From Escherichia phage vB_Ec-G1, in the sequence record PQ433349.1: a DNA stretch of 64,000 bases, one strand, 5' to 3'. Positions 3,320-34,254 of this stretch are shown one piece after another; position 1 is the stretch's first letter; each line of letters begins with the position of its first letter. The position numbers and the translations under genes were made by a program. The notes under the pieces are model-generated. The model saw only the letters and a list, made by a program, of their open reading frames with translations, was not told where the DNA came from and did not search any database.

Positions 3320-3883
3320 CTAAATAGTTTTACTGTGATCGTGACAGTGTAATAAATGATGTATAGACCGTTGAGGATTTGTTTGACCTAATCTGTAAAT
3401 GTGAAACAGATACATTCCCCGCATCAATCCTAACCTCTTTCCTTTTTCATGTAAAGTGCGAGAGAAAATTAAGTCGAATTGGATAGATTTTTCTTCGAAA
3501 GGAATTTCATTCCACAACGATTTTCTAAAAAGCAAAAAGAAACCTGCCAGAGGTGTTCCGAAAGGAACTTCTTCAACACTCACTTTATGATATTCTCTTG
3601 CAATCTTAGCATATTCTATATGGTTTAGAATATCTGGATCATCGTTAATTTGGTTAGAGAAAAGCTGATAACCACTACCTAACCTGTTACAAGTTGCACC
3701 TATTACATCAAAAGGTGGGTTTGAAATAACAAGCTCTTCAAGCATAGATGGTTGATCAGGCAGGAGGAACATTGTATCGGTATCTCTTAAGCACACCCAA
3801 CTATCATCTGGAAGAACGGCAATAGCTTCATTGATAGCCTTGCCGATATTTCCTGTCAGATAGGGAGTAATATAATAAATCAT
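3320..3883 (-). CDS. putative GT-A-like glycosyltransferase
   Basis: 187 aa; N-terminal ITPY...AIAVLPDDSWVCLRDTDTMFL resembles the GT2 Rossmann region with DxD. Confidence 0.35.
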   Translation of the reverse strand: MIYYITPYLTGNIGKAINEAIAVLPDDSWVCLRDTDTMFLLPDQPSMLEELVISNPPFDVIGATCNRLGSGYQLFSNQINDDPDILNHIEYAKIAREYHKVSVEEVPFGTPLAGFFLLFRKSLWNEIPFEEKSIQFDLIFSRTLHEKGKRLGLMRGMYLFHIYRLGQTNPQRSIHHLLHCHDHSKTI

Positions 3884-29415: not shown

Positions 29416-29772
29416 ATGAAAAAATTAATCTTAGCCACATTGCTGGCTACCGTAAGCTTCACCACTTACGCTCAAAAATTTGTAGCAGTTAAAACGGATA
29501 TTGGTAAAGATGTTGTGATCACAGGCAACAAGTTTTACTATACACCTGGGAATGGTGTTCTAGAAGAGTGCAAAGATGTTGAGGCATATACAGGAAAAGA
29601 AGATAACACGGAACGTCCTTTTTATTCGATTATAGCTACTTGCAAAAATGAAATAGTAGCTATTAAACAATACAAAGATGCCCCTGGAGGAGAGTACTTA
29701 TTAATCAAGAATATTAAGAGTGAAAAAACTGCAAAGTTTACAGTAATTATTTTAAAAGGAGAAACGTTCTAA
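29416..29772 (+). CDS. secreted hypothetical protein
   Basis: Trimmed to MKKLILATLLATVSFTTYA signal peptide start after AGGAGGG RBS. Confidence 0.5.
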   Translation: MKKLILATLLATVSFTTYAQKFVAVKTDIGKDVVITGNKFYYTPGNGVLEECKDVEAYTGKEDNTERPFYSIIATCKNEIVAIKQYKDAPGGEYLLIKNIKSEKTAKFTVIILKGETF

Positions 29773-30911
29773 TGAAATACACTATTTTTGGAGATGTAGC
29801 TGTTGTAAATAAGGAATATGGCGTTGAAGCTAATAAACTTCCTGCTGGAGTTTGGGTTGTCAACTGCGATCCGCACGGTAACTACTCTTTAGTGCGTGGC
29901 GAAAGTTTCTCTCTTCCGAACACTCTTTATGGGGAAACTAAAGACCGCGCCGCACATGTTATTAAAACATTTGCTCGTCGTAGTAAAGAAGGTAAAAATA
30001 CTGGGGTGTTACTGACAGGGACAAAGGGCAGTGGTAAGACGATGTTAGCTAAACTGATTAGCATGTCCCTAATGTCCACAGAAGGTTTAGGTATTCCAAC
30101 CATTTTGGTGACACAGCCTTACACAGATGCTGGATTCTTAGAATTTATGAGTAAAATTACAGATCGTGCTGTTGTTTTATTTGACGAGTTTGATAAAGTG
30201 TACGCTAAGAAAGAAGATCAGGAAGCACTGTTGACCTTGTTGGATGGAACAGGAAGTGGAAATAAACTTTACATCCTCACTAAAAATAGTGGCTATATCT
30301 CGGAATATTTTGTAAACCGTCCTAGTCGTATCTACTACAGTTTCAATTACGATAAACTGTCTAGTGAAACTATGTTAGATTACTTGGATAAGAACTTGGT
30401 AAATAAAAAGCACGTAGATAACTTCCAACGTTTATGGGATGTTAGCACAGAGTTGTCTTTCGATGTTATTCAAGGCATTGTAGAAGAATTGAATTTCTAT
30501 CCAAAAATGACTTTTAAAGAATGTCTTGAAATGATGGGTATTTCTTTAGGGAACGATGCTAAATGGAATGTGGCTTCTATCGTAGCTAATGGCAAAACCT
30601 TGAAGGTGAATTGGATCAATAACTGGCACGACTTCACCCCTACTAAGTTTTTGTCGGGTGCTTGTTCCCTGAACATCTATCTACAAAGTTTGAAAGATGA
30701 TGAAGTGGAAGCAATGGAAACCAACAGTTATGTTATCCTGGATGAAGATGGTGATCCACATATTGATCTATGTGCAACGGCTGATGGTCTAACTTGTGAT
30801 CTGATTGAAGGTGGTAAGATTCTGGTTATGAGCACTACACCAGGAAACACTCTGCGAGTGGTGCTGGAGCCTGTAACACAACGTTCCACTACTTTGGGTA
30901 GCGTATTCTAA
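29772..30911 (+). CDS. AAA+ family ATPase
   Basis: 379 aa; Walker A GTKGSGKT and Walker B VVLFDEFD. Confidence 0.6.
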   Translation: MKYTIFGDVAVVNKEYGVEANKLPAGVWVVNCDPHGNYSLVRGESFSLPNTLYGETKDRAAHVIKTFARRSKEGKNTGVLLTGTKGSGKTMLAKLISMSLMSTEGLGIPTILVTQPYTDAGFLEFMSKITDRAVVLFDEFDKVYAKKEDQEALLTLLDGTGSGNKLYILTKNSGYISEYFVNRPSRIYYSFNYDKLSSETMLDYLDKNLVNKKHVDNFQRLWDVSTELSFDVIQGIVEELNFYPKMTFKECLEMMGISLGNDAKWNVASIVANGKTLKVNWINNWHDFTPTKFLSGACSLNIYLQSLKDDEVEAMETNSYVILDEDGDPHIDLCATADGLTCDLIEGGKILVMSTTPGNTLRVVLEPVTQRSTTLGSVF

Positions 30912-30927
30912 TAAGGCTCCCTTATTA

Positions 30928-30952
30928 AACCCGCTTCGGCGGGTTTTGTTAT
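30928..30952 (+). terminator. rho-independent terminator
   Basis: AAACCCGC-ttcg-GCGGGTTT hairpin followed by TTGTT; identical hairpin recurs near 62387. Confidence 0.7.
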
Positions 30953-30988
30953 ATTGATTTCAGTTTAATAGGAAGAGAATTGTTAGAT

Positions 30989-31981
30989 ATGCCAGTAAAG
31001 AAGAGTATTGAAACATATATGGAAGAATGTAAGCCGATAGCTGAGGCTAAAGGGATTACCATTCTCGGCACGTATGGAGAAGATAAAGGTGTGCATACGA
31101 AGATGATCAATCGTTGTGAACATGGTCATGAATGGAACACTACAACCTTTAATAAATTTAAGTCTGGTCGTGGTTGCCCTGTTTGTAGGTATGAGAGAGC
31201 AGGACAAGCTAAAACTATTCCAGATGATCAGCACATACAAGATTTTATGAATACAGGCAAGTTTAAACCTGGGACTATCTTCACTAATACAGGAAAACGA
31301 GCTAAAGGAGGGCGCAATATTTTATGGTGTGTAGAGTGTCCTGTTTGTAGTGTTGATGAATATGTTCAAGCGGGTGTCTGCAATGGTAAATTTTACTCTA
31401 CAGGGAGTAGCCTTAAAAAAGGGCAAACCCCTTGCCGTTGTGCAACTAACTATCACCACACAGAAGAACAGATCACCTACAGAACAAAGAAGGAAGTAGA
31501 GAGTAAAGGATACATTTGGATAGGATGGATCGGGAAACCTTTTGCACATGGTAAGTTTAAATATGGATGTAAGGAGCACGGAGAGCAGATAGGACGTGCA
31601 AGGGATTTATTACACCAGGGTAGTGGTTGTCCTGGTTGCGCTGGCAAGAATCAACAACAGGCATACATTAACAACGTCTATGATGAACAAGGTGTTCTTT
31701 GTGCATTGAAGTTTGGCATTGCCAATAATAGCGATCAGCGTATTAAGATCCAGAACTACAACAATGTGTTTACGATGAAACAAACCCAAGTGTGGCGCTT
31801 CCCTACTGTGAAGCAATGCAAAGATGCAGAGAAGCGTTGTAAGCGTGTCCTTCACACGGAAGCAGTGAGCAAATATTCTATGCCAGATGGCTACACAGAG
31901 ACAGTGGAGTTATCTTGCATGGCATCAATACAAAATATTTATAAACTTTATGGTGGAACATTACAGGAGGAAACATGTTAG
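30989..31981 (+). CDS. Cys-rich protein with repeated zinc-ribbon motifs and a C-terminal T5orf172/GIY-YIG-like region
   Basis: Repeated C..H..W...G.GCP.C units; C-terminal LCALKFGIANNSDQRIKIQ resembles T5orf172-type domains. Confidence 0.4.
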   Translation: MPVKKSIETYMEECKPIAEAKGITILGTYGEDKGVHTKMINRCEHGHEWNTTTFNKFKSGRGCPVCRYERAGQAKTIPDDQHIQDFMNTGKFKPGTIFTNTGKRAKGGRNILWCVECPVCSVDEYVQAGVCNGKFYSTGSSLKKGQTPCRCATNYHHTEEQITYRTKKEVESKGYIWIGWIGKPFAHGKFKYGCKEHGEQIGRARDLLHQGSGCPGCAGKNQQQAYINNVYDEQGVLCALKFGIANNSDQRIKIQNYNNVFTMKQTQVWRFPTVKQCKDAEKRCKRVLHTEAVSKYSMPDGYTETVELSCMASIQNIYKLYGGTLQEETC

Positions 31982-32353: not shown

Positions 32354-32533
32354 ATGGCACGTTTAGCAGATCATGAAATCTTTAAACCTATTCTGAACCA
32401 CTATGATGAACTTAAAGCAGTGTTGGATTGTTATAGAGAGGATGAAGAACGTTTGGAAGTCAATCTTAAGATAGTTCTGATGAAAGCTTTTCAAGACGGG
32501 CAAGCTAAAGTTTTAGAAGGCATGAAAAAATGA
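32354..32533 (+). CDS. small hypothetical protein
   Basis: Trimmed to ATG after AAAGGAGA RBS. Confidence 0.45.
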   Translation: MARLADHEIFKPILNHYDELKAVLDCYREDEERLEVNLKIVLMKAFQDGQAKVLEGMKK

Positions 32534-33072
32534 GAATAACTGATGAATATGTATTCTTCTTTTCACATAAAGATGTGTTTAGTAATTGGTATATTGCACC
32601 CTTTACAGAAACTGAACCAGGTTACAATGAGACTTTCTGTTGTGTTGAGCAATATATGATGTGGCGTAAGGCTTTGCTGTTCAAGGATCATGCGATTGCA
32701 GCAGCTATCCTTGATCACTCAACTATACGTGACAACGAGAGGAAACAAGCATACTACAAACGTATGGGTCGAGCGGTATCTGGTTTTAATAATGATATGT
32801 GGGAAGAGAACCGTGAGCGTATTGTTATGCGAGGCTTATGCTTGAAATATGTACAGAATCCAGATTTGTATGCAGACTTACACCTTTACCAATACAAAAC
32901 GTTTGTTGAAGCAAGCCCCTACGATAAGGTTTACGGAATTGGAATGGGGATGTATGAACCAGGGGTGCTAAACCCTGCTACCTGGAAAGGGCAGAATCTT
33001 TTAGGCAAATATCATAATAAACTGATCGAAATACTTTTCCCAGACAAAATACCGCAAAGACGATATTTGTGA
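32530..33072 (+). CDS. NADAR (YbiA-like, DUF1768) domain protein
   Basis: 180 aa; F.F...SNWY..PF...F..VEQYMMWRKALLF...MGRAV..F...W...R...M...KY.QNP.L...L.....FVEASPYD..YGIG pattern matches NADAR. Confidence 0.6.
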   Translation: MRITDEYVFFFSHKDVFSNWYIAPFTETEPGYNETFCCVEQYMMWRKALLFKDHAIAAAILDHSTIRDNERKQAYYKRMGRAVSGFNNDMWEENRERIVMRGLCLKYVQNPDLYADLHLYQYKTFVEASPYDKVYGIGMGMYEPGVLNPATWKGQNLLGKYHNKLIEILFPDKIPQRRYL

Positions 33073-33127
33073 TATTTTAACTTTTTTCATTTTTAGAACA
33101 AAGGTGTCACTTTGTAGCACAGAAATA

Positions 33128-33163
33128 AGGCTCCTACAGCACCGTAGAGAGCCTGTTATTTTG
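33128..33163 (+). terminator. rho-independent terminator after NADAR gene
   Basis: GGCTCCTAC-agcacc-GTAGAGAGCC hairpin followed by TGTTATTTTGT. Confidence 0.55.
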
Positions 33164-33169
33164 TCCTAT

Positions 33170-33520
33170 ACAAACCCTTATCTTTTTCAGTTTGCATCAC
33201 TAGGATTCGATCTAAGTGGGTTCCTGAAGGTCTGCCAATAAGATTAAAGGTTATCTCAAATTCCCACTACCTATTATCTCAAAAATCCCTCAAATTATTT
33301 AAACTTTTTAAGAATTTACAAAAGTGAAAGTTGAAAACCAAAATTTAAAGTTTAGGAAAATTATCTTAAAATGTTAGATACAAAACAAAACTCAAAAATC
33401 AAGGAAAATTTTAAAAATTTTGCGCGCCCACAGTATTTAAAGTTTTTTTGCTTTTACAAAAATGAAAGTACAAAAGCAAAATTTAAAGTTTACAAAAATT
33501 TATGCAGATGGGAATGAGAA
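33170..33520. repeat. AT-rich intergenic region with short direct repeats
   Basis: Repeated TTATCTCAAA, AAATTTAAAGTTTA and TTTACAAAARTGAAAGT units; no ORF. Confidence 0.45.
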
Positions 33521-33620
33521 GAGTTCTCATATGGAAATGCAAATGATAATGATTCGCATTTAGGTTTATAAATGAGATTGATTCTTATTCAATAAGGTAA
33601 ATGATAATCATTCTCATTTA
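33512..33620. promoter_or_regulatory. three tandem palindromic operator-like sites (Fur-box-like)
   Basis: ATGAGAAgagTTCTCAT, AAATGATAATgATTCGCATTT and AAATGATAATcATTCTCATTT; resemble the TGATAATnATTATCA Fur-box core. Confidence 0.45.
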
Positions 33621-33878
33621 AAGAATGACGCGCAGGGGCGGTGTTTGTCTCGCGCTCCCGTGTCCCCTCGCCATGTAATAAGAATAACAGATCCAGCCAG
33701 GAAAGCAAGCGATTATTTTATCTTTACATTTCTTTACAAATATATAGCGCCCAGCCTACCGGCGATCAACCTTCCAACCAGTGCCCCCTGGTATGTTAGC
33801 CCCGCCTTTACGCCGTGGGGTGGCGCTTCCTCTTCTGTATGTAAAACAGTATAAGCCCGATCCCTGGGCTTGTCAAGA

Positions 33879-34145
33879 TTATTTTTTGTTTTCTTGCCAG
33901 GATAGGACACCTAACCAAAAATATATATCGCCCCGCGCCCCTGGTGGTATCTTGCTTTCCCCGCCGCCACTGCAAGCCCATAGATAACCATTTGCGAACG
34001 TATCAAAATGATCTATCTCTTCCACCTTATGATCGCCCAGGTTGAGAACGGTTTCAACCTTTAAGCCCGTTGCGCTTGCTACCTGGTGCACCGTGCCGCC
34101 TTGCCAGCCCAATGAGTGCATAAGGTGTAATGTAGTATTTGTCAT
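33879..34145 (-). CDS. hypothetical protein (88 aa) on opposite strand in a GC-rich island
   Basis: Only minus-strand ORF inside the plus block; GC-rich codons; plausible RBS; function unknown. Confidence 0.3.
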   Translation of the reverse strand: MTNTTLHLMHSLGWQGGTVHQVASATGLKVETVLNLGDHKVEEIDHFDTFANGYLWACSGGGESKIPPGARGDIYFWLGVLSWQENKK

Positions 34146-34254
34146 GGTATCGCCCTTTCTTTGATGTGCGCCCTGGTTGGCGCGGTAGAAAGATGATAGC
34201 CCTTTCTTTTATATATAGCAAGCAAAAAGAAAATAAAAAAGATTGAAAAAGTGA

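Follow-up and report, generated by a model that had tools for sequence, protein, structure and literature searches.

A gene of probable homing-endonuclease type, with CapR zinc modules, downstream of a AAA+ ATPase gene in Escherichia phage vB_Ec-G1

Genes and signals at the locus

We analysed a 64,000-nucleotide stretch of DNA from Escherichia phage vB_Ec-G1 (PQ433349.1; hereafter the window), in which a gene for a AAA+ ATPase of 379 amino acids (aa) is followed by an intrinsic terminator, a cysteine-rich gene (gene 2) and a gene for a 121-aa protein. Gene 2 (30989..31981, on the plus strand like all features described here; 330 aa) has the domains and homologues of a free-standing gene of homing-endonuclease type. 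The locus is 98.8% identical to that of Phapecoctavirus 536P1 and 87-90% identical to those of phAPEC8 and its relatives, and on this sequence identity the phage can be placed among the phAPEC8-like E. coli myoviruses (Phapecoctavirus, Stephanstirmvirinae). The resources with which the locus was compared were Pfam, PHROG, NCBIfam, PADLOC, PDB sequences, Rfam and Foldseek.

The open reading frame (ORF) of gene 2 extends from a TTG at 30980 to 31981 and encodes 333 aa, the length given in an earlier note on this DNA. The ATG at 30989 (MPVKK...), which gives the 330-aa protein, is the better start, because the closest homologue is 330 aa long at 100% coverage and because the start in relatives is the corresponding ATG, preceded by a GAGGAG-type ribosome-binding site (RBS). 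Pfam CapR (PF21817) matches the whole protein in three stretches (E 1.5e-22). Module 1, of the CapR/treble-clef type (aa ~14-66; 31028..31186; CapR E 4.3e-8, DUF4379 E 7.9e-5), carries the ligands C43-x-H45-x-H47...C63PVC66. Module 2 (aa ~84-152; 31238..31444; CapR E 3.1e-13) carries the variant set C114xxC117xxC120...C149xC151, of which C151 is invariant in the family, and module 3 (aa ~167-224; 31487..31660; CapR E 3.3e-4 when scanned alone) has C194-x2-H197...C214PGC217. A hidden Markov model (HMM) of module 1 finds module 3 at E 1.5e-7 and one of module 3 finds module 1 at E 1.4e-12; these two are therefore true internal repeats. The repeated C..H..W...GCP.C zinc ribbons reported in the earlier note thus describe modules 1 and 3, which have the C-x-H...GCPxC pattern, and not module 2, where the pattern is CxxCxxC...CxC.

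The remainder of the protein (aa ~223-330; 31655..31978) is, by its motif residues and fold, a divergent T5orf172-like nuclease domain of the GIY-YIG superfamily. In the window protein itself the C-terminal ~105 residues give sub-threshold Pfam matches (T5orf172 E 0.07, MUG113 E 0.09, DUF1802 E 0.009), above the E <= 0.001 for T5orf172 (PF10544) or MUG113 (PF13455) that Barth et al. use as their domain criterion, and a precomputed T5orf172 call is absent from all 85 database homologues. The same region of the aligned family matches T5orf172 in 39 of 59 members at E <= 1 (best E 6.3e-5); 28 members match MUG113 and four match GIY-YIG itself. The orthologue from phage EmilieFrey reaches E 6.8e-4 and 20.6 bits against the curated T5orf172 cutoff of 20, and further orthologues from the same slot give E 0.004-0.03. 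The domain has the GIY-YIG core, a three-stranded sheet with helices in the order beta-beta-alpha-beta-alpha-alpha. Its conserved columns are Y225 (xYIN), K241-F-G243-I244, R251, E281 and D300-G-Y-T-E304-T; Y225, K241-F-G243, R251 and E304 are kept in at least 90% of 59 homologues, and G243 and E304 are invariant even in sequences at ~20% identity. These residues match Y6, Y17, R27 and E75 of I-TevI (the GIY, YIG, Arg and Glu motifs) in motif order, not by superposition. A phmmer search with gene 2 against PDB sequences gave no match. Given the profile matches of the orthologues and the conserved motif columns, the C-terminal GIY-YIG assignment is settled: the window protein is a divergent T5orf172 relative by profile and a member of the family by fold and architecture. 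A metal-dependent DNA-cleaving activity of the protein is predicted.

The ATPase gene (29772..30911) is the longest ORF from 27 to 35 kb of the window, in line with the earlier note, which had called its product a 379-aa Walker A/B ATPase and the largest gene of the early plus-strand block. The translation contains GTKGSGKT (Walker A) and VVLFDEFD (Walker B) and matches Pfam AAA (PF00004; E 8.7e-7, 29.9 bits against a cutoff of 21.2) and phrog_2376 (E 3.9e-111). A sensor Asn172 and an R183-P-S-R186 stretch resembling the second region of homology (SRH) are invariant across 60 homologues, and all the hallmarks of classic-clade AAA+ proteins (Walker A, Walker B and an SRH with Arg fingers) are present. 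The structural model (predicted local distance difference test, pLDDT, 85.6) has an N-terminal beta domain (~1-45), an AAA core (~55-255) and a C-terminal beta-rich domain (~265-367), and its Foldseek neighbours are all classic-clade proteins (Bcs1, YjoB, FtsH, Rpt subunits, Cdc48 and NSF; E ~1e-8 to 1e-7). The model thus points to a protein remodeller of the AAA+ classic clade and not to an ATPase that acts on DNA.

Homologues of the ATPase were found by tblastn in 394 phage records in all. The protein is at least 99% identical in 62 of them, 80% identical in the phiWec group and 64% in Justusliebigvirus, and homologues at 27-45% occur in jumbo, Aeromonas, Proteus, Herelleviridae-like Bacillus/Enterococcus/Staphylococcus and crAss-like phages. 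PADLOC and NCBIfam gave generic P-loop matches only, and the Hda model scored 19 bits against a cutoff of 195. The labels 'DnaA regulatory inactivator Hda' (SKA64, OM362897) and 'FtsH-like protease' (EmilieFrey, MZ501063; the protease domain is absent) are unsupported, because their basis is generic P-loop similarity. The tblastn search also matched two places in each Justusliebigvirus record (e.g. MZ501063 EmilieFrey, NC_052655 alia), which suggests a second, paralogous AAA+ gene elsewhere in these genomes.

Between the two genes, as the earlier note had proposed, lies an intrinsic terminator (30927..30952; AAACCCGC-TTCG-GCGGGTTT followed by TTTTGTT). The terminator is strong, and its hairpin (30927-30946), with an 8-bp GC-rich stem and a TTCG loop, is present in the minimum-free-energy and centroid folds alike, and in phage ASO2A a terminator is annotated at the equivalent place. 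Comparison of junctions distinguishes this 'type B' terminator, found with the alleles of the window, 536P1, phAPEC8, SKA64 and EmilieFrey, from a 'type A' terminator (GATGCCCCGCAAGGGGCATTT) found at empty sites and in ASO2A, ESCO5 and phiWec179. Because the two 5' junction types sort with the alleles, the lineage of the window allele appears to bring its own terminator and leader. A promoter scan showed no excess over shuffles, and none of its predictions between the terminator and gene 2 was convincing. At the 3' junction (31960..31981, defined by alignment with phiWec188), the end of gene 2 (..Q-E-E-T-C-stop) overlies both the ATG (31975) of the 121-aa gene and its RBS, GGAGGAAA. In every allele, including the 37%-identical one of phiWec179, the last codons extend across the downstream gene's RBS and start codon; at the empty site the same RBS/ATG sequence comes straight after the terminator.

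Empty sites and exchanged alleles

Relatives that lack gene 2, for which the earlier note had proposed to look, are found in the phiWec group. In phiWec188 and phiWec190 the ATPase stop codon and terminator are followed by CATATAC-GGAGGAAAATT-ATG of the next gene, and the slot is also empty in Klebsiella phage phi1_175008. The phages phiWec179 and phiWec188 share the same ATPase allele and are 98% identical over 2.4 kb upstream and 95.6% identical downstream; in phiWec179 a 1007-bp insertion replaces 9 bp of phiWec188 and encodes a 337-aa protein of the same architecture as the window protein, to which it is 37% identical. The gene therefore shows the presence/absence polymorphism at a fixed site by which homing genes are recognised. 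Across Phapecoctavirus and Justusliebigvirus the slot proteins are 326-486 aa long and have three, four or five CapR modules, the additional modules joining at the N-terminus in ~68-aa units.

Comparison of the window with SKA64, phAPEC8 and ESCO5 gave synonymous divergence (dS) of 0.44-3.1 for gene 2, as against 0.03-0.10 for the ATPase and 0.015-0.11 for the downstream gene, an excess of roughly 5- to 100-fold over the flanking genes. The ratio of non-synonymous to synonymous divergence (dN/dS) of gene 2 is 0.10-0.38 in every domain. Because dS is high in gene 2 and low in its flanks at such low dN/dS, the alleles are best described, from sequence divergence, as old, functional lineages that have recombined into near-identical backbones, and not as variants of a fast-evolving resident gene. 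In most Phapecoctavirus records the ATPase protein is 100% identical, irrespective of the allele that follows. The discordance with the flanks can run the other way: between the window and 536P1, gene 2 has one mismatch in ~1 kb and the 3' half of the ATPase gene ~3 per 100 bp. A history discordant with that of the flanks, the other mark of a homing gene, is thus seen in both the dS contrast and the comparison with 536P1.

The domains of gene 2 likewise have separate histories. In the P0001 allele the zinc modules are 98-100% identical and the nuclease 85%, and in Justusliebigvirus-type alleles modules 2-3 are ~70% identical and the nuclease 44%. Within the genus, the nuclease domain is the best-conserved part of gene 2 (81-97% identity), and no positive selection on the zinc modules was found (dN/dS 0.2-0.4).

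Two records were set aside. An apparent swap of the N-terminal domain in MRostami-2023b (OQ031492, 2646-3540) is actually a run of Ns in an unverified, apparently reference-scaffolded record; the Ns cover the variable zinc-finger part, and hypervariable alleles of homing endonuclease genes (HEGs) can defeat mapping-based assembly. EP57 (OR544956), a candidate second empty site, instead carries a deletion, real or an assembly artefact, and was not used as evidence. The deletion, at 3380-3520, removes gene 2, the terminator and the final three codons of the ATPase gene, and ATPase residue 376 runs in frame into the downstream 121-aa gene as an annotated 501-aa coding sequence; several further deletions, and fragmented ORFs, occur in this 130-kb record. 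If the deletion is real, gene 2 would be dispensable.

A possible trace of homing lies at the end of the ATPase gene, where the last seven codons (T-T-L-G-S-V-F; 30888..30908) form a hotspot of synonymous substitution, clearest in the five codons T-T-L-G-S. Six close genomes, with ATPase proteins that differ little or not at all, have 45 segregating sites in this gene, and six of these lie in the final 21 sense nucleotides, the highest count in any of 374 scanning intervals (P 9e-5 per interval, ~0.035 after correction), giving five haplotypes among the six genomes; the 13 preceding codons are nucleotide-identical. In the independent pair phiWec179/phiWec188, six of 25 differences fall within the last 24 nucleotides, all of them synonymous (P 6e-6). 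The hotspot is a candidate for a homing recognition or cleavage site, since silent changes could escape cleavage, or for a co-conversion junction, which would look alike. The likeliest target of gene 2 would lie at the 3' end of the ATPase gene or in the terminator region.

Homing and its alternatives

Taken together, these data favour, with a probability of about 0.8, the reading of gene 2 as a free-standing CapR-zinc-finger/T5orf172 (GIY-YIG superfamily) homing endonuclease gene lying between the ATPase terminator and the next RBS. Its architecture and fold, the conservation of the catalytic motif, purifying selection, presence or absence at a precise site and the exchange of alleles between near-identical genomes all agree with that reading, and we infer that homing continues in the present day. 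The zinc modules, three in tandem like beads on a string, would read a long DNA target, and the C-terminal GIY-YIG domain would cut nearby in co-infecting relatives without the same allele. The break would be repaired through recombination with the nuclease-carrying genome, copying gene 2 and some flanking sequence into the recipient and, in this lineage, also its own upstream terminator and leader. The ATPase is an independent and widely conserved protein remodeller, and its gene only supplies a conserved landing site.

Several observations count against homing. The window protein alone scores 14.1 bits for T5orf172 against a cutoff of 20, the equivalent of I-TevI His31 appears to be Gln (from motif reading, not superposed), and Foldseek with the full-length gene-2 model returned no match. 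For members in this phage group neither a cleavage assay nor a target site is known. Almost all sampled Phapecoctavirus genomes are already occupied by an allele, and classical homing into empty sites must therefore now be rare; no degraded copies were seen, whereas a purely selfish, near-fixed element would be expected to leave some.

This near-universal occupancy also bears on a different and rather unlikely explanation, that gene 2 is a domesticated nuclease kept for the benefit of the phage, in marker exclusion of relatives or as a weapon against satellites and other parasites like ICP1 Odn, with a zinc-finger array that diversifies as it tracks its targets. Such a role would suit the slot's being filled in almost all sampled members of the genus, as well as alleles that were all intact and under purifying selection where examined and DNA-binding modules that are shuffled and variable in number; Odn-like T5orf172 nucleases are moreover found in Mt1B1_P17 and Muut, phages of the same subfamily (Barth et al., PMC10448857). 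It sits poorly with an array made of CapR modules only, with no RepA_N or other satellite-derived DNA-binding domain, with zinc modules that show no sign of positive selection, with the absence of a PADLOC match for gene 2, and with phiWec188 and phiWec190, which manage without the gene. The domesticated-nuclease and homing readings are not mutually exclusive. In a further reading, which we regard as quite improbable, the slot would be a long-lived allele-exchange locus, where nucleases of modular specificity cut one another's sites or empty sites at the ATPase 3' end in inter-phage exclusion; module order might then be a readable DNA-recognition code, with one ~68-aa module per DNA sub-site.

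That the protein is a nuclease-dead regulator, binding a promoter or terminator region to control, for example, the downstream genes, in the manner of CapR or of I-TevI autorepression, is very improbable. CapR is indeed a repressor derived from the same family (PMC8096241), and gene 2 follows a terminator and overlaps the next start with its stop, suggesting coupling; yet CapR is without the nuclease domain, which in gene 2 is present and better conserved than any other part, and across the family the Arg and Glu of the GIY-YIG motif vary hardly or not at all. Replacement by 37%-identical alleles and absence from close relatives would also be unexpected for a regulator.

We give almost no credence to the suggestion that ATPase and gene 2 form a functional module, be it for DNA targeting or anti-defence, as the earlier note also proposed, or for defence, with the nuclease regulated or loaded by the AAA+ protein. 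Pairs of an ATPase and a nuclease are frequent in conflict systems, and the two genes lie side by side in both Phapecoctavirus and Justusliebigvirus. However, phiWec188/190 and Klebsiella phi1_175008 have the ATPase but not the nuclease, hundreds of phages carry the ATPase with no such neighbour, its sequence stays the same whatever allele follows, the homologues of ATPase and CapR-nuclease in GAP32 lie 63 kb apart, and ICP1 holds several nuclease copies. The ATPase also has the fold of a classic protein-remodelling AAA, and PADLOC models match neither of the two proteins, apart from a generic P-loop resemblance. Because some genomes have an empty slot, a terminator intervenes and the dS gap points to different histories, we regard ATPase and gene 2 as neighbours, not as a module. 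The mobile, homing-endonuclease-like gene that the same note offered as an alternative stands, since the second protein has a nuclease fold and the two genes are not both invariant among relatives.

These results correct the annotation, in that the two genes are not to be treated as a system, and the RefSeq label 'endonuclease' for the slot can now rest on fold and motif and not on PHROG transfer alone. The locus is a natural example of the turnover of homing-endonuclease alleles in a genus of therapeutic phages, with a series of ~60 near-identical genomes, alleles 37-95% identical, three to five modules and a clean empty site; the last ~20 nucleotides of the ATPase ORF provide a concrete candidate target for studying the DNA specificity of CapR arrays. 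Beyond the allele series, the empty site and the candidate target, no new principle is added. The gene may still be purely selfish or may have been kept for inter-phage or anti-satellite conflict.

Neighbouring regions and relation to known systems

In the window no second copy of gene 2 was found by tblastn or by family HMMs run against all six-frame ORFs, tRNA and Rfam scans of the locus neighbourhood gave no matches, and PADLOC and NCBIfam gave none for gene 2 or the downstream 121-aa protein. About 600 bp downstream of gene 2, at 32572-32872, the window has 58 mismatches in 300 bp to 536P1, to which it is ~98-99% identical elsewhere. This second sharp mosaic patch sits inside a gene for a 180-aa YbiA-like/NADAR-type protein (32530-33072) and is possibly another recombination tract. 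Further on, 33100-34250 (~1.1 kb) contains only short overlapping ORFs on both strands and no tRNA or Rfam match; its counterpart in relatives has an annotated terminator and little besides, and the region is a large conserved non-coding or small-gene region. The E. coli-type locus is also carried by records from Campylobacter phages B15, A150 and A145 (MG065650, MG065639, MG065645), Acinetobacter phage ABPW7 (OP562383) and Pseudomonas phage PsgM04F (OR584014). These five have 88-97% nucleotide identity, or 64.5% ATPase protein identity, to Phapecoctavirus/Justusliebigvirus; their stated hosts look doubtful, with contamination or misattribution possible.

The ATPase shares a common AAA core fold, with its SRH-like NRPSR motif, with Bcs1, B. 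subtilis YjoB, FtsH and the proteasomal Rpt subunits. It is only 15-20% identical to these proteins and differs from them in having no protease or transmembrane domain and in its N- and C-terminal beta domains, which are unique to the phage protein.

For gene 2 the closest described systems are the T5orf172 homing endonucleases of Vibrio phage ICP1. CapR itself represses the capsid operon of PLE, a satellite of V. cholerae, and is kin to the N-terminal zinc fingers of these enzymes (Netter et al. 2021, PMC8096241). T5orf172 HEGs usually carry at least one CapR, DUF723 or DUF4379 zinc module, strung as beads on a string; their modules are duplicated and shuffled, the genes are placed at boundaries of genetic exchange, and, in one case at least, nuclease activity needs the conserved Glu (PMC10448857). 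The zinc-finger hallmark of the family described by Barth et al. is present in gene 2. BLASTP aligns the protein with ICP1 gp165 at E 5e-32 and 31% identity over 255 aa, mostly in the zinc modules; gp165, annotated as 'putative homing endonuclease', is itself sub-threshold for T5orf172 in the same Pfam release (17.3 bits). By tblastn gene 2 matches 142 records of Vibrio phages, in which an ICP1 genome has 3-4 copies, and RefSeq labels the orthologues 'endonuclease', in one record 'putative homing endonuclease'.

Like gene 2, ICP1 gp165 and gp174 have tandem CapR modules followed by a C-terminal T5orf172-like GIY-YIG domain (PMC8096241, PMC10448857), and the ICP1 enzymes are likewise free-standing, adjoin a conserved gene at an exchange boundary and vary among alleles in repeat number and domain combination. 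The nuclease domain of gene 2 forms a separate, more divergent branch than that of gp165, and two of its three modules use C-x-H...CxxC in place of the CxxC...CxC of the ICP1 type. Its host is an E. coli phage of the Stephanstirmvirinae, and its landing site, 3' of a AAA+ ATPase gene, is not among the essential-gene neighbourhoods stressed for the ICP1 type. The relation to other systems is more distant. In I-TevI and the T4 Seg enzymes the nuclease is N-terminal, whereas that predicted for gene 2 is C-terminal, and DNA binding in T4 Seg/Mob and I-TevI is of helix-turn-helix or NUMOD type in place of a zinc-module array. PLE CapR shares with gene 2 the zinc-finger DNA-binding module for which PF21817 is named, but is a nuclease-less, domesticated repressor of a satellite, whereas gene 2 is phage-encoded with a conserved nuclease domain. 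SLX1 and HIGLE show fold-level kinship only with the nuclease domain (12-14% identity) and, unlike gene 2, are eukaryotic structure-specific repair enzymes with RING/PHD partners. Together these comparisons make gene 2 a divergent but typical member of the described CapR/T5orf172 kind.

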